NCBI GenBank assembly: GCA_965205045.1
Contig: OZ242031.1
Location: forward strand, 4,572,044 to 4,636,043
Reading direction: 5' to 3'
DNA from: Candidatus Rariloculaceae bacterium
GTDB taxonomy: Bacteria > Pseudomonadota > Gammaproteobacteria > Steroidobacterales > Rariloculaceae
DNA length: 64,000 nucleotides
The position numbers and the translations under genes were made by a program. Below the pieces are notes generated by a model. It searched no databases. It was not told where the DNA came from and was given only the letters and a program-made list of their open reading frames with translations. This document shows, in pieces, positions 10,953 through 26,404 of this stretch (position 1 is the stretch's first letter; each line of letters begins with the position of its first letter).

Positions 10953-12200
10953 CTACCCCCCGATCCACTCCACCACCGTACTCACCCCCATCCCGACGCC
11001 GACGCACAGCGTGGCCAGCCCGTAGAACGGCCGGGGCTGCTGCGGCGCGCGTCGTTTCATTTCGTGGATGAGCGTGACCAGGATGCGGGCGCCCGAGCAG
11101 CCCGTGGGATGGCCCAGCGCAATGGCACCGCCGTTTACGTTGGTGATGTCGTGGCGCAACCCCAGCTTGCGCATGCAGGCCAGGGTCTGGGCCGCGAACG
11201 CCTCGTTGATCTCGATCAGGCCGATGTCGTCCAGAGTCAGGCCCAGGCGATCCAGCAGCTTTCTGGTGGAGGGGACCGGACCGTAGCCCATGACGCCCGG
11301 GTCGACACCCGCCACGGCGGAGCCAACCCAACGTACCAGGGGGCGGAGGCCGAGCTGCGATGCCCGCTCGCCCACGGTGAGAACCAGCGCCGCAGCGCCG
11401 TCATTGATGCCGCTTGAATTGCCCGCCGTAACCGTCCCGCCCTTCTGAAACGCCGGCCGCAGTTTTGCCAGCCGCTCCAGGCTCGTATCCACCTCGTAGT
11501 GGCCATTGACGTGCCGGTAACGTGGATGTTCGTCGACGTCCACAATCAGGGGATCGCCGCGCCGCCGCGGAACCTCCACCGGGACGATCTCATCCGTGAA
11601 CCGGCCGTCGTTGATGGCCGCGACGGCGCGCCTCTGGCTTTCCAGTGCGAAGGCGTCCTGATCCTCGCGGCTGATCTGCATGTCCTCGGCCAGCGCCTCC
11701 GCCGTCTGCCCAAGGCTGATGATCGGATACAGGGCATCCATTTTCGGATTGTTGTAGCGCCAGCCCACCGTGGTGTCGTACATGACGGGCGGTTTGGTGC
11801 TCGGGGTCCGATCGGGCTTCGGCACGCTCCACGGCGCCCGGCTCATGGACTCCACGCCGCTGCCGATACAGATATCGGCCTCCCCGGCCAGGATGGTCTT
11901 GGCGGCCAGGTTGACCGACTCCAGCGCCGACGAGCACAACCGGTTGACGGTCACTCCCGGCACCGTGCTCGGGAACCCCGCCAGCAATGTCGCCATGCGC
12001 GCCACGTTGCGGTTGTCCTCCCCCGCCTGGTTGCTGCAGCCCGCGTAGACGTCGTCTACGGTGGCGGGGTCGATCCCTGTCCGGCGTATCAGCGCCTCGT
12101 AGGTCACTGCCAGCAGATCGTCCGGCCGCACGCTGGATAACCCGCCGCCGTAGGCTCCGATCGGCGTGCGAACGCCGTCGACGATGACAACTTCCTTCAT
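10953..12200 (-). CDS. Acetyl-CoA C-acetyltransferase (thiolase)
   Basis: The ORF extends to 12257, but [15 protein letters not shown] starts at 12200. Motifs: [29 protein letters not shown]. Confidence 0.9.
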
Positions 12201-12580
12201 TCGAACAATCTCCTTCGGCGATATGCGGCTGCGATCATGGCGCAGGCATCGAAACAAATCGATATTAGCGCATCACTGATCGCAAAATCGCCCATGTGGC
12301 GTGCGTGCAAATCATTGCTGAATGCCTCGGCAGGTTCACGCCCTTGATGTTGGCATGTCACCCGCGAAGCGGCGCAGATCGCCCTCGACACGCGGGATGG
12401 GGCGGGAGCTGCCGCGCCGCTTGACGATGACCGGACTCAACGGTTCCCAGAGCTTGCCGTCGGGCGAGGATTCGTGCTCGAACGACGTCTCCGCACTCGC
12501 CACCAGATTGCCATGGCCGACGGATGGATTGCGTTCGGGTCCGGGCGCGCGCGGACACGGCGCCGAAGGCGCGGGACATG

Positions 12581-12619: not shown

Positions 12620-13255
12620 TCATGACGTGCCGCCCGGTTCCGTGGCCCCGCCGCCGGTATCGTCGGCGCCGTCCGCCTCCCCGGCGCGCGTGTCGCCCTC
12701 GAAGAGCAGCAGGTCGGCGCGCGCGGGCACGTAGGGCTCCCTCGCATCGGCGCAGATCATCCGGCCGGCGACGGGGCCGGCGTAGACGATCGTCTCGTCC
12801 TGCGGGCCGCCGTCGTAGGGGCCCGGGTGCTCGTACTCGGCGTACTCGTGGCCGGCGTCCGGGTGCGCCCTGCCGTGGTGGATGAAGCCGTCCGCGGCGC
12901 CGCCGTCCCGGGCGAAACCGCAGTTGCGGTATTTCCATCCCCCTTCCCAGTCCCCGTCCGCGTCCCACAGGCACATGTCCCAGCGTTGCCCGGTGTGCAG
13001 CTCGAAGGTGTAGACCGGCGTTTGCATGTCGCCCATGGCGGCGGCGAGCGCTTCGGCCCGCGCATGGGCGGTGTCGGCGAGCGCCCAGCAGAAGTGCTCG
13101 CCGTAGCCGTACCCGGCCAGTTCGCGGCCGGCGAAGGACTCCACCGGGTTCTCCGGTTCCACGGCCTCCACGCCGGATTGGCCGAAGGCCGGGGAGCCGA
13201 GGATGAGGATGGGCGCGGCCGCGATGCCGGCGGCGGTGCGGTTCAAGGTAATCAT
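12620..13255 (-). CDS. Secreted 211-aa protein with a four-Cys domain, paralogous to the C-terminus of the upstream gene
   Basis: This is the last 211 codons of track ORF 12620..15043. ATG 13255 follows GGAGGA. Signal peptide: MITLNRTAAGIAAAPILILGSPAFG. ATGA overlap with the upstream stop. Confidence 0.6.
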   Translation of the reverse strand: MITLNRTAAGIAAAPILILGSPAFGQSGVEAVEPENPVESFAGRELAGYGYGEHFCWALADTAHARAEALAAAMGDMQTPVYTFELHTGQRWDMCLWDADGDWEGGWKYRNCGFARDGGAADGFIHHGRAHPDAGHEYAEYEHPGPYDGGPQDETIVYAGPVAGRMICADAREPYVPARADLLLFEGDTRAGEADGADDTGGGATEPGGTS

Positions 13256-15639
13256 TCGGTGTCCTCCGTCCCGGTGTTGTCGGGGTTGTCGGGCGCGATG
13301 CGCAGTCGCCAGGCGCCGCCTCCGGCGGCCGCTTCGGCGGGAACGACGCAGGCCATCAGCCCGGGCGCGCGTTCCACGGAAATCTCCTCCCGGCCGGCGC
13401 CCCGGACGGGGCTCGCGTGTTCGGGCAGCGCGCCGCCCGCGCCGCGGCAGGAGGCGTAGGCCGGGGCGTCCCTCCAGTTCGGGTCCGGCGCCCACAGGCA
13501 CAGGTCGAAGTCCCGCGCGCTGTCGAGCCGGTAGGCCAGCCGCGCGCTCTCGCCGAGCGCGCCCAGCTCGGCGGCCCCGGGCACGAAACAGTACGGCGAA
13601 CCGATGGCGCGCGCGCGCCGGCCGATCACCGGCGGCTGGGCGCGGCGGTTTCCCCGGCCCGGTTCCGCGGCCGGGCCCGGGACGCCCGGGACCGCCGCCG
13701 GCGCCCCGCCATGGCCCGGCGGGACGCCGCCGCCATGCTCCCCGGGCGCAGCGTCCTCCCCGTCCGATGCCGTCGGCGGGCCGCGCCGCCCCTCCTCGCC
13801 GGAACCCGGCGGGGTCCCCTCTTCGGGCGTCCCCGCCGCCGGCGCCGCCGGCGCCGCGGCCGGCGCCCCGGTCACCTCGATGCGGTAGGTCGTCGTGCCG
13901 CCCGCCATCACCCACAGCTCGGTCGCGCCGCCGTCCGGCGCCAGCGCCAGCTCCACCGCCGTGCCCGAGGGCCGCACCCGCGCCGGGCGCGTGAAGGTCG
14001 TCCCGCCCCGGCGCGAGCCCGCGAACACGCTCGCCCCGCCGTCCCAGCGCGGCGCCAGCGTCACGCGCGCCGTCCCCGCCGGCACCGACGCCCGGTACGA
14101 CAGCACATCCGTCGAGAAGGCCGGGCTCAGCGCCACCGCCCCCGAACCGGCCGCGAGCGCGAGCCCGGTCACGGTCTGCGGGTCGCGCTCCTGCGTCCTC
14201 GCCGCGTTCTGGGGGTCCTGGACAATGACGGTCACCCGGGCGCCCAGGTAATCCGCCGGGACCTCCGGCGAGTCGACGCCGTGGTCGACAACCAGGACCT
14301 CGTTGCGGGAGTCCGCGTCCCTTCCGGCGCTGACCGTGAACGTTATCGGGCCCGTGTCTCCCGCCTCGACCCGGACCCGCCCGGGAGAGACCGCGATCGC
14401 GCCGGGGTCGCTGTCGCCGGGGACGCTGACGCGCGGGGAAATGTACGCGGCGTCCCCGAGCGGCTCCTTCAGGCGGACGGTGTAGGTCGCGCTGCCGCCC
14501 TCCTCCACCGACACCTGGCCCGGGGAAGCGGCCAGATATTTGCAGTCGTCGTCGATGATTTCGATCGAAATCACCAGGCCATGGTGGCGGTCCTGCCGGT
14601 CCCAGCCTCCCCAGTCGGGACCGCCGCCGCTGCCGTGGTGCCTGATCCAGTACCGGGTGCCGGGCGGCGACTTGCACTCGTTGTCGTCCACGGCGGTGAG
14701 CCTGACCGATTTGGGATTCATCCAGTCCGTGTGGAGGTAGGACTGGGCCGGAAAGGTGACCGCGTTGTGGATCGTGAGCAGTCCGTTGTCGACCTGGGGG
14801 TAGTCGCTGCCGTCCGGCCGGACGTTGTGGTGTCGCGGCGTGATGGTCAGATCCGCGGTCGGCGGCTGGTCGATCGCGATGGGGTAGGTGATCGATGTGC
14901 CCTCGGCGATCTTCAGCCGTCCGGGTCCGAGCGGGTAGAGCCCCGGGGTGGACATGCTGCCGGCGCGGCCCAGCGAGGGATGCGCCAGCCTCACCGCGAC
15001 CTGCTGGTTGTCGGTCCAGTCCGTGGCTGGATCGTACGACCATTTGACGCCGCCCTCCTCAGCTGTGGTGGCGTCGTTGGCGGCAAGCGGTGTTCCGTCG
15101 ACGGTCAGCGTCGCGAACCTGCCGATGGCGACCTCAGAGTCGGGGCCGGTGGAGCCCGGATTGCGCTTGTTGAAGAGAATGAAAGCGTTGGCAGGGAGTG
15201 TACCGCCGTTTATATGCACAACCAAGTGTAGTCTATTAGTTGCTGAATCCCAATAGAGTGACACGACCTTATAGTTCGCCCCGTTATAGGTGAATTCATC
15301 TTCCGACAAGACGGTCGAGCTTGAGCAGTTGTCCTGGGTGGCCTCACTGTTGTCGCAGCCGAAAAAGCCGTCGTCCTCATCGACTGTCAGCGTCGCCGAC
15401 CAGATCTGGGACTGCGCCTGGGCGGGCGCGGCCGCGAACAGGCCGAGCGCGCCGAGCACCAGCGCGAGGACGGGGAGGAGGGCGGGGCCGCGCCATGCGG
15501 ACGCGGCCCGGCGCGGGCCCGCCGGAGCGGCCAAGCGGCCGCCGGTCAGTCCGGATGAAGGGGAGGGGAGCTTGCGTGCGCGCCCTCGATGGGCGGCGGC
15601 CGGTTCAGGCGGGCCGGCCTCCCGCCGCGCGCACCTCAT
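13252..15639 (-). CDS. Large secreted protein with a cadherin-like beta-sandwich domain and a C-terminal four-Cys domain (start uncertain)
   Basis: ORF 13252..15729. Hydrophobic signal: ALLPVLALVLGALGLFAAAPAQAQS. Cadherin-like stretch: LSPAFSTDVLSYRASVPAGTARVTLAPRW...TTYRIEVTG. Start candidates are ATG 15639, an in-frame TTG near 15530, or TTG/GTG upstream of the repeat. Confidence 0.65.
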   Translation of the reverse strand: MRCARREAGPPEPAAAHRGRARKLPSPSSGLTGGRLAAPAGPRRAASAWRGPALLPVLALVLGALGLFAAAPAQAQSQIWSATLTVDEDDGFFGCDNSEATQDNCSSSTVLSEDEFTYNGANYKVVSLYWDSATNRLHLVVHINGGTLPANAFILFNKRNPGSTGPDSEVAIGRFATLTVDGTPLAANDATTAEEGGVKWSYDPATDWTDNQQVAVRLAHPSLGRAGSMSTPGLYPLGPGRLKIAEGTSITYPIAIDQPPTADLTITPRHHNVRPDGSDYPQVDNGLLTIHNAVTFPAQSYLHTDWMNPKSVRLTAVDDNECKSPPGTRYWIRHHGSGGGPDWGGWDRQDRHHGLVISIEIIDDDCKYLAASPGQVSVEEGGSATYTVRLKEPLGDAAYISPRVSVPGDSDPGAIAVSPGRVRVEAGDTGPITFTVSAGRDADSRNEVLVVDHGVDSPEVPADYLGARVTVIVQDPQNAARTQERDPQTVTGLALAAGSGAVALSPAFSTDVLSYRASVPAGTARVTLAPRWDGGASVFAGSRRGGTTFTRPARVRPSGTAVELALAPDGGATELWVMAGGTTTYRIEVTGAPAAAPAAPAAGTPEEGTPPGSGEEGRRGPPTASDGEDAAPGEHGGGVPPGHGGAPAAVPGVPGPAAEPGRGNRRAQPPVIGRRARAIGSPYCFVPGAAELGALGESARLAYRLDSARDFDLCLWAPDPNWRDAPAYASCRGAGGALPEHASPVRGAGREEISVERAPGLMACVVPAEAAAGGGAWRLRIAPDNPDNTGTEDTE

Positions 15640-15640
15640 C

Positions 15641-15724
15641 GCTCGGCGCTCGGCGCTCGGCGCTCGGCGCTCGGCGCTCGGCGCTCGGCGCTCGGCGCTC
15701 GGCGCTCGGCGCTCGGCGCTCGGC
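15641..15724. repeat. Perfect heptanucleotide microsatellite, (GCTCGGC)x12 on the plus strand (GCCGAGC on the gene strand)
   Basis: Counted directly: 84 nt of uninterrupted 7-nt units, ending 1 nt upstream of ATG 15639 of the secreted-protein gene. Confidence 0.95.
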
Positions 15725-16222
15725 ACCAATTATACCGCGCCTGTCAACCCCCGCAACGAAACGAACGTTTGATGTCATGACCTGCCCCTCGAGACACCGG
15801 CAATCAATGCGGCGTGGAAGGAATTTGAACAGAATCCGCCTGCGAATTCAAGACTGCCCCGGCCGTGCGAGCGGGCCTGTTCGAAAGTCACGGCGCGGTT
15901 CTCCCGGGGGAGGCGATCGAAGCGGCCCATCGCGCGCACGATGGAGATGGCGGCGTTGCCGATCGCGGCGAGGTTTTGCGGCGGATGCCCGGCCGCGGCG
16001 CGGCGAACTCCCCGAACGCGCTCACGCCGCGGTGGCGGGCCAGCCGCGCCGCGGCCGCGATCGTCGGATGGCGCGCCAGGCTGTTGGGCGGCATGACTTC
16101 ATCCCTCCCCGTCCATGGCCTCAGGCTATACGCCCCGACTTTTGAATAGTCCTGCGCGCGTGCGCACGGTTACGGACGCGCGTATCCAAAACCATCGATT
16201 CGCTCCAGCACACCGGCGTATC

Positions 16223-17032
16223 TCAGGCCAGTTCCCTGCTCCGTCGGGCGGCGGCCTGCACCGCCTCGCTGAGGAGCGCTTCCAGAGCGCCCGAGTCGCC
16301 GATCAGCACCTCGAGCGCGGCCTGCGTCGTCCCGCCGGGACTGGTGACCTGGCGGCGCAGTTCCGCCGGGTCCGTACCCGACGCCATGGCGTAGGCACCC
16401 GCGCCGGAAACCGTTGCCAATGCCAGCCGCTCGGCCAGACCCCGCTCGAAACCGACCTTCACCGCCGCCGCCGCCAGGCATTCGATCAGCAGGAATACAT
16501 AGGCCGGGCCGCTGCCGGAGACGGCGGTTACCGCATCCATGAGGCTATCGTCCTTAAGCCACACCACCTGTCCCACCGCGGCCATGAGCGATTCGCAAAG
16601 CCGCTGCAGGTCCGGGCCCACGACGTCGCTGGCGGCCAGCGCGGTGATTCCCCTGCCGATCGAAGCCGGCGTGTTGGGCATGCCGCGGACGATGGCCGCA
16701 CCGGTGCCGAGCAGGCCCTGGTAGAACGCGATGGTCTTGCCCGCGGCAATGGTGAGCAAGACAGCCCGGCCGTCGGCCAGGTCGCGATAGTCCTGCAATG
16801 CTCCCTCGACCAGGTGTGGCTTGACGGCCAGTACGATCACATCGGGGCGAAACGAATCCGGCCGCCCCGGGGAGGCCTTGATACCCAGCGATTCGACGGC
16901 CGCGCGCGCCCGGCCGTCCGGGTCCACCACGTGAATCGTCTCCGGCGCCCGGCCGTCCGCGAGCCACCCACGCAGCAACGCCTGGCCCATGTTGCCGCCG
17001 CCCGCCAGCAGAATCGCTTTCCGACCGCTCAT
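16223..17032 (-). CDS. proC: Pyrroline-5-carboxylate reductase
   Basis: MSGRKAILLAGGGNMGQALL (Rossmann fold)...VTSPGGTTQAALEVL signature. The ATG at 17032 overlaps the upstream stop (ATGA). Confidence 0.9.
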   Translation of the reverse strand: MSGRKAILLAGGGNMGQALLRGWLADGRAPETIHVVDPDGRARAAVESLGIKASPGRPDSFRPDVIVLAVKPHLVEGALQDYRDLADGRAVLLTIAAGKTIAFYQGLLGTGAAIVRGMPNTPASIGRGITALAASDVVGPDLQRLCESLMAAVGQVVWLKDDSLMDAVTAVSGSGPAYVFLLIECLAAAAVKVGFERGLAERLALATVSGAGAYAMASGTDPAELRRQVTSPGGTTQAALEVLIGDSGALEALLSEAVQAAARRSRELA

Positions 17033-18390
17033 GATTCCGACTCCAATCCAGCTTTTGATTCCGATGTCGGTGACATTGCGCTCTCCGCGCTTCCCCGGGG
17101 ACCGGTCACTACACGGCCCTTCCTGGCCAACACTTCTGGAACCCCCTCGCTGTGGGCCACCACACACGCCGTGACACCGTCGCCGGTCACGTTCACCGCT
17201 GTCCTCATCATGTCAAGCAACCGGTCGATCCCGAAAATGAGCGCAATACCCTCCACCGGCACACCCACCTGAGTCAATACCATGGTCAACGTGATCAGGC
17301 CGGCGGAGGGGACCGCCGCCGTGCCGATGGAGGCAAGCGTGGAGAGCAGGATAATCACCAGGAAGTCCGCAAAGACCAGATCCACACCGTACACGTTGGC
17401 AATGAACACGGTGGCGATGCCCTGCATGATGGCCGTTCCGTCCATGTTGATGGTCGCACCCAGCGGGACGGTGAACGAGGCAATGGAATTCGGCACGCCC
17501 AGGCGTCTCGTCAACGCGTTGAGCGTGACCGGGATCGTCGCCGCCGACGAGGCCGTGCTGAAGGCAAACGTCATCGGCGACCGCATGCGCGCCAGAAACC
17601 TGAGCGCATTCAGCCCGAAGGCCCGCAACACGAGCGAATAGACGACCAGCAGATACGCCAGCAACGTACCGGCGAGGAGCAGAAAGTAGCCCGCCAGCGG
17701 AATGAAGATTTCCCATCCCTGCGTGGCGAACGTTCGGGCCAGCAGCGCGAAAAGTCCGATCGGCGCAAGCTGGATGATGAGCATCACCATTTTCAGGATC
17801 ACGTCGTTCAGGCCCCTGAACAGCCTGACCACGGGTCCTGCCCGCTCGCCGGCCAGATTCGCCGCGAACCCGAACAGCAGCGCGAAAACAATAACCTGGA
17901 GCATCCGCCCGTCCGCCATGGCCTGGAACAGATTCTCCGGGAAGATGTCGATGAAAGTGTCCGCCAGGGGAGGCATTTCCCGGGGCGCGACTTCGCCGAA
18001 ATCGCCCTCCAGTTCGAAGCCGGCTCCGGGCGATACCGCAAGGCCCATCGACAGGCCGACGGTGACGGCCACGGCCGTGGTCGCCAGGAACAGGCCCACC
18101 GTCTTCGCACCCACCCGCCCGAAGGTCTTGAGGTCGCCCATGGCATTGACCCCGCAAATCAGCGAGACGAGAACCAGCGGAACCACCATCAGCCCGAGCA
18201 GCGCGAGGAATATTCCGCCAACGACGTAGAAGAGACCGTCCACGAGAAACGCGTTCAGCGACGGCAACGCCCCCGCCGATGCGTTCAGGCCAATGCCCAC
18301 CACGATTCCGGCCAGCATCGACAGCAGAATTCGCTGCGTAAAGCTCACACGGTCTCCTTGTGCCCGGGGAATCCCGTAAATTCGCGACAC
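17029..18390 (-). CDS. Dicarboxylate/amino acid:cation symporter (DAACS family)
   Basis: 453 aa, polytopic. Motifs: FSTASSAATIPVT, PLGATINMDGTA, AVPSAGL, DRLLDMMRTAVNVTGD. Confidence 0.9.
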   Translation of the reverse strand: MSRIYGIPRAQGDRVSFTQRILLSMLAGIVVGIGLNASAGALPSLNAFLVDGLFYVVGGIFLALLGLMVVPLVLVSLICGVNAMGDLKTFGRVGAKTVGLFLATTAVAVTVGLSMGLAVSPGAGFELEGDFGEVAPREMPPLADTFIDIFPENLFQAMADGRMLQVIVFALLFGFAANLAGERAGPVVRLFRGLNDVILKMVMLIIQLAPIGLFALLARTFATQGWEIFIPLAGYFLLLAGTLLAYLLVVYSLVLRAFGLNALRFLARMRSPMTFAFSTASSAATIPVTLNALTRRLGVPNSIASFTVPLGATINMDGTAIMQGIATVFIANVYGVDLVFADFLVIILLSTLASIGTAAVPSAGLITLTMVLTQVGVPVEGIALIFGIDRLLDMMRTAVNVTGDGVTACVVAHSEGVPEVLARKGRVVTGPRGSAESAMSPTSESKAGLESES

Positions 18391-20257: not shown

Positions 20258-21163
20258 ATGAGAAAATTGCTGAAGGATCCGCTGCTGCACTTCGTGGTAC
20301 TGGGCCTCGGCCTGTTCCTGCTCTATCGACTCACCGGCCAACAGGCCGACGGCGACGAGGTCCTAATCGACCGGGATGCCCTGCTGCGCCACTTGCAGTA
20401 CCAGTCCGTGGCCTTCGACCGGGCACAGTTCGAACTGTTCCTCGAAGACATGGCCGGGCGCGAAACGGCGGACCTGATCGTGGAAGCCGCCCGGGAGGAA
20501 ATCCTCTACCGCGAAGCACTGGCCATGGGACTGGACCGGGACGACTACATCATTCGCAGCCGTCTCGTTCAGAAGCTCATGTACCTGGCGGAAGGCTTCG
20601 CCAGCGACGCGGTCGGCCTGAGCGAAGAAGAAATTGAAGCGTATTTCGAAGCCAATCGCGACAGTTACGAACTCGATCCCTACATTACGCTGACCCACGT
20701 GTTCTTCAATGCCGAGCGCCGCGGGTGGGATGAGGCGCGCGCGCTGGCCGAGGCCAAACTCCGGGAACTCAACGACGGACTCGTGCAGTTCGAAGAAAGT
20801 TCCGCCCATGGAGACCGGTTCCCGTACTTCGTGAACTACATCGAGCGGCCTCCGCAACTCATCGCCAGCCACTTCGGAGGCGCAATGACCGAGGCGCTGT
20901 TCCAGCTCCCGGTCGACGCGGCATCGTGGCGGGGGCCGTACGAGTCCCGGTTCGGAACGCACCTGGTGATGGTCACCAACCAGCAACCGGAGCGCATGCC
21001 CGACTTCGATGAAGTCAGGGACCGTGTGGCGGCCGACGCCCAGGCCGCCCGCGACCGGGCACTGACGGACGCGGCCATCGATGAAATCGTGGCGCGCTAC
21101 ACCATCGTCATCGGCGCCGATCTGCAAAGCGCCGATGAGGGGACCGGGGCCCCGCCGGAATGA
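20258..21163 (+). CDS. Membrane-anchored parvulin-type peptidyl-prolyl isomerase
   Basis: N-terminal TM segment LLHFVVLGLGLFLLY. C-terminal rotamase-like stretch WRGPYESRFGTHLVMVTN. Confidence 0.7.
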   Translation: MRKLLKDPLLHFVVLGLGLFLLYRLTGQQADGDEVLIDRDALLRHLQYQSVAFDRAQFELFLEDMAGRETADLIVEAAREEILYREALAMGLDRDDYIIRSRLVQKLMYLAEGFASDAVGLSEEEIEAYFEANRDSYELDPYITLTHVFFNAERRGWDEARALAEAKLRELNDGLVQFEESSAHGDRFPYFVNYIERPPQLIASHFGGAMTEALFQLPVDAASWRGPYESRFGTHLVMVTNQQPERMPDFDEVRDRVAADAQAARDRALTDAAIDEIVARYTIVIGADLQSADEGTGAPPE

Positions 21164-21358
21164 GGCGGCTTGCCTTACTCGCCAGTTTGAGGTGGCTGGC
21201 CGCGTTCGCCGGTTTGAGGCGGCCTGCGCCACCCGCCAGTTTCAGGCGGCCTGCGCCACCCGCCAGTTTCAGGCGGCCTATGCCACCCGCCGGTTTGAGG
21301 CGGCCTGCGTCACCCGCCGGTTTGAGGCGGCCTGCCACACTTGACGGTTTGAGGCGGG
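21159..21358. repeat. 27-bp tandem array, about 7.5 units (consensus TTTGAGGCGGCCTGCGCCACCCGCCAG)
   Basis: Units were phased by hand at 21159, 21186, 21213, 21240, 21267, 21294, 21321 and 21348 (decaying). The array begins at the PPIase stop codon and ends at the HupE signal peptide. Confidence 0.9.
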
Positions 21359-23751: not shown

Positions 23752-23905
23752 TGCGTAATCCCTTCAAAGTTACCAGCCAGTCCCAGTCAAAAGTACCAGT
23801 CGTTCCCGCTCAAAAGTACCACCCGATCCGCGGCAAAGTTACCGCTTCGCCGATGGTCGTCGAACGATGGCTCGGCGCGAGGCGACGCGTGGCCGGATTT
23901 TTAGG

Positions 23906-26215: not shown

Positions 26216-26404
26216 CTGCCTGCCTCCTCTGTTGGAAAACAGGCAGCCTATGGGGTCCGGCATCCACGCCGCGGACGCGCCAGAGAGCGGTACTTTTCAG
26301 CGAGTTTGGGCGGTAACTTTCAGCGAGAATCGCCGGTACATTTGAACGAGAATCGGTGGTACGTTTCGGCGAGATTCACCGGTACATTTGGCTGAGAATA
26401 CGCA

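Follow-up and report, generated by a model that had tools for sequence, protein, structure and literature searches.

A perfect GCCGAGC repeat tract before an adhesin-like gene of a Candidatus Rariloculaceae bacterium as a candidate slipped-strand expression switch

What might a perfect heptanucleotide repeat be doing directly in front of the start codon of a large secreted-protein gene? This question is raised by a 64,000-nucleotide (nt) stretch of contig OZ242031.1 from a Candidatus Rariloculaceae bacterium (hereafter the window), in which the minus strand carries twelve GCCGAGC units ahead of the ATG at 15639. A sequence-only reading of this DNA had seen here the architecture of a phase-variable contingency locus governing a surface or secreted protein pair. 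That view is strongly supported by tracts on the same gene family in about eight phyla and by copy-number differences among near-identical paralogs; its details need correction, and the switching itself is putative. Overall, we consider it probable that the tract belongs to a hypermutable expression switch of some kind. As to how it would act, the reading that we place first, while giving it slightly less than an even chance, is that slipped-strand events in the tract switch an adhesin-like gene and its co-translated partner at the 5′ end, as in a contingency locus, with change of reading frame as the main mechanism.

The tract itself is unambiguous. Positions 15724..15641 of the minus strand consist of (GCCGAGC)×12 with zero mismatches; a regular-expression count gave exactly 12.0 units, and Tandem Repeats Finder reported a period of 7, 12.1 copies, 100% matches and a score of 170 for 15640-15724, which together confirm twelve uninterrupted units ending 1 nt before ATG 15639. 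The order on the minus strand is TTGACA(15747-15742)-ggcgcgg-TATAAT(15734-15729)-tggt-(GCCGAGC)×12(15724-15641)-g-ATG(15639). This is the sole perfect tract above our thresholds within the window, and a chance origin is excluded, the expectation by our own arithmetic being ~1e-39 per 64 kb for a run of ~77 self-matches in which each base matches with a probability of ~0.26. Without its A, the unit GCCGAGC becomes the palindrome GCCGGC, and RNA of the tract is predicted to fold on itself (-55.8 kcal/mol, z = -5.8 against shuffles). Three features expected of a contingency locus are present: a long pure array of a short unit (12 perfect units); a potentially length-sensitive placement of a 7-nt unit, not divisible by 3, between ATG 15778 with its Shine–Dalgarno-like sequence and ATG 15639, downstream of a -10-like hexamer; and a product of the surface-exposed or host-facing kind (signal peptide, Cadherin-like domain, all-beta Ig-like model).

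Repeat tracts are a trait of the family to which this gene belongs. A protein search returned 94 relatives, and the 5.99-Mb contig that holds the window encodes several of these; most family copies in the 32 related loci that we collected (numbered below with the prefix L) carry a perfect 5′ tract. Sharing the upstream block with the (GCCGAGC)12 of the window are L146 and L150, each with (GCCGAGC)11, L151 with (GCCGAGC)6-GC-(GCCGAGC)7, L152 with (GCCGGAC)13.7 and L001 with (GGCCCATC)10.5. The copy number of GCCGAGC is 11, 11, 12 and 13 among these related cassettes, which are paralogous or related copies rather than one orthologous locus in different strains. One Binatia metagenome-assembled genome (MAG) holds ten (GCCCAGCG)n copies with n = 8, 9 (six times), 10, 12 and 13 between flanks that are 92-100% identical; a Poriferihabitaceae MAG has (GCCAGCG)9.3, 11.3 and 16.3, and a gammaproteobacterial MAG (GTCGAGC)8.4. 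The related units include AGCGCCG, AGCGGCC, AGCGGCCC, ATCGGCCC, AGCGTCG and GCCGGAC, in 8-16 copies. Written in the same rotation, AGCGCCG, AGCGTCG, AGCGGCC, AGCGGCCC and ATCGGCCC are one-step variants of each other, and each array is internally perfect, which points to homologous arrays that are continually re-homogenised. All eight unit types are 5, 7 or 8 nt long, never 6 or 9, and units of known switching tracts are likewise not divisible by 3 (review, PMC11475388).

In other phyla, the family carries intragenic tracts a few codons after an ATG with a clear Shine–Dalgarno sequence: (GA)15 in a Nitrospirales homolog, (C)11-15 in nine Thermodesulfobacteriota copies, (G)21 and (G)15 in Poriferisodalis homologs, and (G)11 in a Dehalococcoidia homolog. 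Because these tracts lie within the reading frame, a frame mechanism would unify the family. The nine poly-C copies (L010, L015, L019, L153) comprise seven of (C)11, one of (C)12 and one of (C)15, all out of frame with the Shine–Dalgarno-preceded ATG, for which 10, 13 or 16 residues would be needed; either these copies are mostly OFF or homopolymer length is miscalled in long-read assembly, and the ON/OFF calls that we list for homopolymer copies are not to be trusted. At L022 7558-7573, in a gammaproteobacterial MAG, another gene start consists of an ATG followed directly by (C)16, and ATG-plus-homopolymer tracts may be common in these symbionts.

With respect to the specificity of the association, 42 tracts were found in 368,594 bp of loci, and all but ~4 stand at the 5′ ends of genes for the adhesin-like family or for a second secreted family with faint LapA/Calx-beta hits. 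The second family carries (GCCGA)n at 11.8, 15.4, 23.8 and 29.8 copies and (GCCGGAA)n at 4, 12, 12, 30 and 37 copies (L001 358-476 and 7736-7794; L146 3048-3196; L151 2106-2182; L002 7979-8237; L004 7940-8023; L018 7899-8108). Its tracts follow a TATAAT- or CATGAT-like hexamer and precede a conserved GGGCCTGACCCC[A/G]TG start, and in one of the frames a stop codon is reached 4 nt ahead of this main ATG/GTG. Copies of the adhesin-like family lacking a tract are L007, L014, L147 and those downstream of a TcA/TcB-like gene. L148 and L149, from one assembly, are 99.7% identical over 11.9 kb, with indels that split the TcA/TcB-binding-domain gene upstream of the tract-less member, and are probably strain variants. 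Of two metagenome scans, one gave 0 matches for the conserved 5′ motif and the other 120 unrelated loci, none encoding the family, for a 20-mer from the signal-peptide region; exact look-ups of the same-genome paralogs P0001, P0003, P0004 and P0041 returned no record.

In terms of where translation begins, ATG 15639 is a real codon boundary, judging from comparison of the copies. Its distance to the signal-peptide anchor is 150, 162, 183, 195 or 204 nt, always a multiple of 3, and most copies have no in-frame start other than its equivalent. Moreover, the indels in 15480-15639 are all multiples of 3 even though these first 53 codons lack a GC bias at third positions (GC at codon positions 1/2/3 of 0.80/0.85/0.81, versus 0.71/0.60/0.88 for the whole gene). 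This ATG has no Shine–Dalgarno sequence and forms ATGA with the next base. TTG 15534 was considered as the true start and rejected, since it is not conserved and Binatia copies carry CTG.

A better candidate for an upstream start than those of the sequence-only reading, ATG 15778, lies on the far side of the tract behind a GAGGGG sequence. Its frame is kept open despite 1-nt and 11-13-nt indels between copies; the two other frames into the tract run into stop codons, one at the TGA of TTGACA and one at the TAA of TATAAT. Among diverged alpha-type copies the upstream core shifts in sequence yet stays Shine–Dalgarno-like (GAGGGG, GGGGAG, GGAGG). Upstream cores and starts elsewhere are GGGGAG and ATG in the L146 type, GGAGG-7-ATG in L021, GGGAGG-6-ATG in Binatia, GGGAGG-3-TTG in Poriferihabitaceae, AAGGGAG-8-ATG in Gammaproteobacteria, and AAGGA-8-ATG and GGGGAG-6-ATG in the second secreted family in Binatia. 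Such a core stands 3-10 nt before the tract-entering start in 5/6 independent upstream contexts, versus 9.2% of all ATGs in the loci (p ~4e-5, a value that carries the caveat that the upstream starts were picked post hoc, after inspection of the data). A canonical Shine–Dalgarno sequence is used elsewhere in the genome, namely GGAGG before the partner gene. The arrangement expected of an Opa-type switch, a start and ribosome-binding site upstream of the tract, is thus represented by a candidate that is open into the tract and recurs across lineages. At 15860-16000 on the minus strand, a short frame (...PQNLAAIGNAAISIVR...) ends on a TGA that overlaps ATG 15778; its resemblance to the C-terminus of a DDE transposase gave the impression of a transposase remnant, which was dropped when Pfam gave no confirmation.

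In the model that we favour, ribosomes would load at GAGGGG and ATG 15778 and translate a short leader through the TTGACA and TATAAT hexamers and the entire tract. As the unit is 7 nt long, each unit gained or lost would move ribosomes into another frame at the tract exit. With n = 11 or 14, they would enter the adhesin open reading frame (ORF) in phase, as happens in Neisseria Opa. If n were 10 or 13, translation would end at 15639, on the TGA that overlaps the ATG there (ATGA), which would be an ideal geometry for re-initiation at this ATG. With n = 12, as assembled, ATG 15778 is out of phase with the gene, and ribosomes would read past ATG 15639 in the wrong phase until they reach TGA 15607-15605, a state that we take as low or OFF. 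The out-of-phase frames accordingly end early relative to ATG 15639, at +1 (ATGA) and at +32 (15607-15605), as in Opa-type switches. Both the in-frame and the ATGA-stopped states would express the gene, and the in-frame state is our choice for the main ON state. A useful rate of slippage, the use of ATG 15778, and the choice between the fused and ATGA states as the source of functional secreted protein are all points that we infer. The models predict the peptides MTSNVRFVAGVDRRGIIG... and (AERRAPS)n and a mature N-terminus of QSQIW. Among the assembled copies, the fused state is represented by L146, L150, L152, L020, L022 and L021, the ATGA-stopped state by L001 and L009, and the overrun state by the window, L151, L012 and 8/10 Binatia copies. 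In L021 the array has decayed to two imperfect units, so that the fused frame is locked in there, and its upstream core, GGAGG, is the best of all.

Several observations weigh against this model. The fused frame is found in only ~1/3 of copies, which is the chance expectation, and the in-frame product would place 100-125 residues before the signal-peptide core, which is unusually long. Gene callers prefer ATG 15639-type starts in most copies, even with an upstream ATG in frame, and ATG 15639 is invariant and always abuts the tract, for which a pure Opa-like model has no need. The upstream start was a post hoc choice. The tract is abutted by perfect TTGACA and TAnAAT hexamers (15-18 nt apart in four contexts) that have the appearance of a real promoter, from which a transcript would not include ATG 15778, and a promoter scan found no canonical promoter upstream of that ATG. 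The same scan found no terminator-like site between proC and the cassette, and read-through transcripts could therefore carry ATG 15778.

These hexamers are the starting point of an alternative that we hold possible if rather unlikely, in which the tract acts from the 5′-untranslated region (5′-UTR) in the manner of hmw and uspA2. Transcription would start ~7 nt after TATAAT, the tract would make up nearly the whole 5′-UTR, and translation would begin at ATG 15639; unit number would then tune expression gradually through the length or stability of a GC hairpin, RNase processing or promoter escape, and not through frame. Tracts between -35 and -10 are known from fim, opc and porA. Here the tract is downstream of the -10-like hexamer in all copies and abuts an ATG without a Shine–Dalgarno sequence, so that it separates neither -35 from -10 nor a ribosome-binding site from a start; what survives of the earlier suggestion of promoter or ribosome-binding-site spacing is best restated as 5′-UTR length. 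Given its position 4 nt after TATAAT, the tract is likely transcribed as a candidate 5′-UTR. In every lineage a TAnAAT-like hexamer stands 1-5 nt before the tract with a perfect TTGACA upstream of it, and these hexamers are read in differing codon phases between lineages, which argues that they are conserved as DNA and not as codons. The alternative also accounts for ATG 15639 as the conserved start, its frame kept through five indel classes, and for a tract-less copy with the leaderless-type layout TATAAG-9 nt-ATG. The stable fold of the tract RNA speaks for it as well, with z below -3 for 5/7 unit types, as does the precedent of hmw1A, where expression is set by a hairpin that forms from a transcribed heptamer tract and is cleaved by RNase III (PMC12721329). 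Nevertheless, the TTGACA-TATAAT spacer is only 7 nt in the window, L146, L150, L151 and L152, compared with 18-20 nt in L001 and L021, the difference being a 13-nt loss between two GCGCGG direct repeats; across copies the spacing takes values of 6, 7, 15, 16, 18, 20 and 24 nt. The promoter scan found no promoter in the window copy, while it returned TTGACA-18-GATAAT in L001 and TTGACA-16-TAGAAT in L009 (each 11/12). Predicted start-codon accessibility is flat at n >= 2, and because two unit types show no self-folding, the idea that all units share this property was dropped. Left unexplained would be the recurrent upstream Shine–Dalgarno sequence and start, the lack of units divisible by 3 and the intragenic tracts elsewhere. 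A conserved RNA structure in the coding leader (a GGCGGG...CCCGCC hairpin) was also rejected, as the RNAalifold covariation term was positive (unfavourable) with 1 compensated pair, and an Rfam scan of 15200-16000 gave no match. The frame switch is ranked above 5′-UTR control because of the 7-nt spacer, the lack of a window promoter in the scan, the 6-24 nt spacings, the n-independent accessibility and the absence of covariation; both layers may operate.

Other explanations fare less well. The tract could be a neutral microsatellite, a slippage-prone GC-rich motif that expanded in a tolerant leader and was copied with the cassette without any role in expression. Long pure arrays do homogenise by slippage without selection, and frame states of ~1/3 each across copies are in line with neutrality, but the occurrence of units of 1, 2, 5, 7 and 8 nt in about eight phyla, always at the 5′ end of this one family, the placement of nearly all 42 tracts at the starts of two secreted families, the uniqueness of the tract within the 64-kb window and the persistence of arrays through changes of unit sequence make this improbable. 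Far less probable still is a start at TTG 15729 or GTG 15726, as first proposed in the sequence-only reading, with (SAERRAP)12 in the protein. This frame, which differs from that of ATG 15778, does run uninterrupted through the tract, matches the phase of the gene at n = 12 and belongs to a long ORF at 13252..15729; its openness carries no weight, however, because GCCGAGC has no stop codon in any of its three frames. TAA 15732-15730 lies in frame directly upstream, the two codons overlap or abut TATAAT (TTG overlapping it), no Shine–Dalgarno-like core or ribosome-binding site precedes them, and their equivalents are absent or in other frames in the L150, L001 and Binatia copies. Least probable of all is that assembly created or collapsed the repeat. 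The sequence does come from a metagenome assembly, and homopolymer lengths are unreliable in such assemblies, yet the same architecture occurs in independent contigs and genomes with differing units and flanks, and an 84-nt array should fall well within single accurate long reads.

Taking the frame switch and the promoter-like hexamers together, we further entertain, as a possibility on the unlikely side, a proteobacterial and Binatia switch with three states set by n mod 3 (fused, ATGA-coupled and overrun), combined with an embedded promoter whose transcript starts within the self-folding repeat; the cassette, shared by about eight phyla, would have come convergently under tracts particular to each lineage (homopolymer, dinucleotide or 5-8-nt unit).

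The kind of system proposed here is known; what is new is the layout, the GC-rich units of 5-8 nt and the setting in sponge-associated MAGs of many phyla. In Neisseria opa, the CTCTT tract is placed in the signal-peptide region. As we propose for our locus, a unit not divisible by 3 stands in the 5′ coding leader of a surface protein with many paralogs, each with its own copy number, and frame decides expression; CTCTT(n) lies within the ORF of a multi-copy outer-membrane adhesin family (PMC11475388). The proteins are unrelated, however, and here the tract is upstream of a second conserved ATG, which lacks a Shine–Dalgarno sequence and has the ATGA overlap, the candidate leader holds promoter-like hexamers, and the units are GC-rich quasi-palindromes of 5-8 nt. 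Haemophilus influenzae hmw1A and hmw2A likewise have a heptanucleotide tract upstream of a large secreted adhesin gene, (ATCTTTC)n, which is transcribed in the 5′-UTR, forms a long hairpin and tunes expression by copy number (PMC12721329). Their tract, at -175 to -116 relative to the ATG, has a distinct G-rich right arm as its pairing partner, whereas ours is 1 nt from the ATG and is predicted to pair with itself, and there is no sequence or protein homology to the window locus. The candidate placement between promoter and start codon recalls the (AGAT)n of uspA2 and the poly-G of uspA1 in Moraxella catarrhalis, which give length-graded expression of autotransporter-type adhesins (PMC7302503, PMC4679880). 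Those tracts stand 29-132 bp from the ORF and are followed by a normal ribosome-binding site, and none follows the tract here.

Phase-variable autotransporters of Neisseria and Haemophilus carry intragenic homopolymers. Similarly, long homologs in our family have an autotransporter-like C-terminus, and some family members carry poly-C, poly-G or (GA)n after an ATG with a Shine–Dalgarno sequence; unlike them, the window protein lacks that C-terminus, and the hosts here are sponge-associated MAGs of many phyla, not pathogens. With respect to arrays that abut start codons, TAACTGA heptamers do so in Beggiatoaceae, Cyanobacteria and Bacteroidetes, where they have been proposed as protein-binding sites; strains differ by indels in 7-nt steps, and the distribution suggests horizontal spread (PMC4679880). 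Heptamer repeats a few nt from a start without a canonical ribosome-binding site are common to both cases. The TAACTGA arrays consist of one fixed AT-rich heptamer, mostly in 2-6 copies, before many unrelated genes, in contrast to the GC-rich, variable units of 8-37 copies found here, which are restricted to two secreted-protein families.

The features of the locus are collected in Table 1.

Table 1. Coordinates and supporting observations for the features of the tract-bearing locus in the window
Feature	Position	Strand	Observation or basis
Perfect heptanucleotide tract (GCCGAGC)×12	15641..15724	-	Direct count, Tandem Repeats Finder
TATAAT, -10-like hexamer	15729..15734	-	4 nt upstream of tract; holds TAA 15732-15730, which closes the TTG 15729 frame
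TTGACA, -35-like hexamer	15742..15747	-	Only 7 nt from TATAAT; 15-20 nt in relatives
TTGCGG, possible substitute -35	15751..15756	-	16 nt upstream of TATAAT; weak match (3/6), conjectural
Annotated start ATG of 795-aa protein	15637..15639	-	P0001 (100% identical) begins here; 1 nt after tract
Upstream ATG, candidate true ribosome entry point	15776..15778	-	Sole start with frame open into tract; kept in all alpha-type loci
Shine–Dalgarno-like GAGGGG	15785..15790	-	6 nt upstream of ATG 15778
Upstream ORF as assembled (n = 12), 57 codons	15605..15778	-	Crosses promoter-like hexamers and tract, passes ATG 15639 out of frame, ends at TGA 15607-15605
Conserved upstream block of cassette	15729..15854	-	Homology with paralogous cassettes starts at ~15854
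Large secreted protein, 795 aa, all-beta, Ig-like or cadherin-like	13252..15639	-	Pfam Cadherin-like, AlphaFold model, Foldseek, homologs
Signal-peptide hydrophobic core and AQA/QSQ cleavage-like site (residues 53-75)	15415..15483	-	Sequence
Partner gene, 211 aa, signal peptide	12620..13255	-	ATG overlaps stop of large gene (ATGA); GGAGG 8 nt upstream

The expectation of a secreted or surface protein pair downstream of the tract proved sound, in that the large product is of secreted type, with a hydrophobic stretch and an AQA/QSQ site, and a second signal-peptide protein is encoded next to it. An AlphaFold model of the large protein is weak (mean pLDDT, predicted local distance difference test, of 53) and all-beta, with a disordered N-region ahead of the helix predicted for residues 55-64, and Foldseek matched it only to generic Ig or Calx-beta sandwiches. 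Cadherin-like is the sole Pfam family matched, and the C-terminus consists of a Pro-rich linker and a small Cys-containing domain. The protein has no C-terminal beta-barrel translocator domain and is thus not an autotransporter of type Va, whereas homologs of 1,200-1,300 aa possess an additional Calx-beta domain as well as a further C-terminal part, for which an end-to-end alignment was obtained with a protein that has the Pfam Autotransporter domain. The pairing of large gene and partner recurs in L001, L146, L150, L151 and L152. The partner (12620-13255) is weakly similar to the Cys-containing C-terminal domain of the large protein (13255-13701), with 26% identity over 62 aa and E = 5e-6 for the pair, and Pfam gave no match for either the partner or that domain.

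The gene pair lies in a GC-rich insert (0.67-0.78, against ~0.60 in the surroundings) flanked by two genes of the same strand, proC (16226-17167) and one for a thiolase (10956-12257), and a search of a plasmid collection with this region gave only a ~80% proC match to Sinorhizobium. Taken alone, that match would make an alphaproteobacterial host probable; the assembly itself is classified in the Gammaproteobacteria. A 1.2-kb core (15018-13806) shows 84-90% DNA identity across MAGs assigned to eight phyla, among them Binatia, Alpha- and Gammaproteobacteria, Nitrospirales, Thermodesulfobacteriota, Dehalococcoidia and Actinomycetota (Poriferisodalis), at loci L002-L025 and L146-L149. The GC content of the core is ~0.7 regardless of that of the flanks (0.48-0.76), and the core looks like the product of very recent exchange between phyla. 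The N-terminal domain (residues ~85-215, ~14995-15385) is hypervariable among paralogs while both of its flanks are 90-95% identical, a pattern that would be expected of a diversified binding domain or of cassette recombination.

Elsewhere in the window, a 27-nt unit is repeated 7.7 times with 81% matches at 21151-21357, at the 5′ end of a HupE/UreJ-like ORF; this array translates as P-A-G/S-L/F-R-R-P-A repeats and has a CCGCC...GGCGG inverted repeat in each unit. Imperfect 23-nt direct repeats occur at 26288-26399 (~4 copies) and 23766-23837 (~2.4 copies), in intergenic-looking DNA.

Contingency loci are familiar from textbooks as a feature of pathogens that have small genomes and face immune pressure, and our search of a paper collection found no description of this variant or of phase-variable tracts in sponge symbionts. 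The present family would place the same contingency logic on horizontally shared adhesin-like genes in sponge-associated bacteria of very different phyla. A leader translated from a Shine–Dalgarno-preceded ATG through promoter-like hexamers and tract to an ATGA start without a Shine–Dalgarno sequence could constitute a three-state switch not described for the classical systems. If true, tracts particular to each lineage on a shared cassette would represent convergent evolution of stochastic switching in a symbiotic microbiome. If the tracts do switch, fluctuating selection on the surfaces of these symbionts would be so strong that bet-hedging is favoured; this selection could stem from host phagocytosis or recognition, or from phage, and the family would be a prime candidate for the host-symbiont interface.

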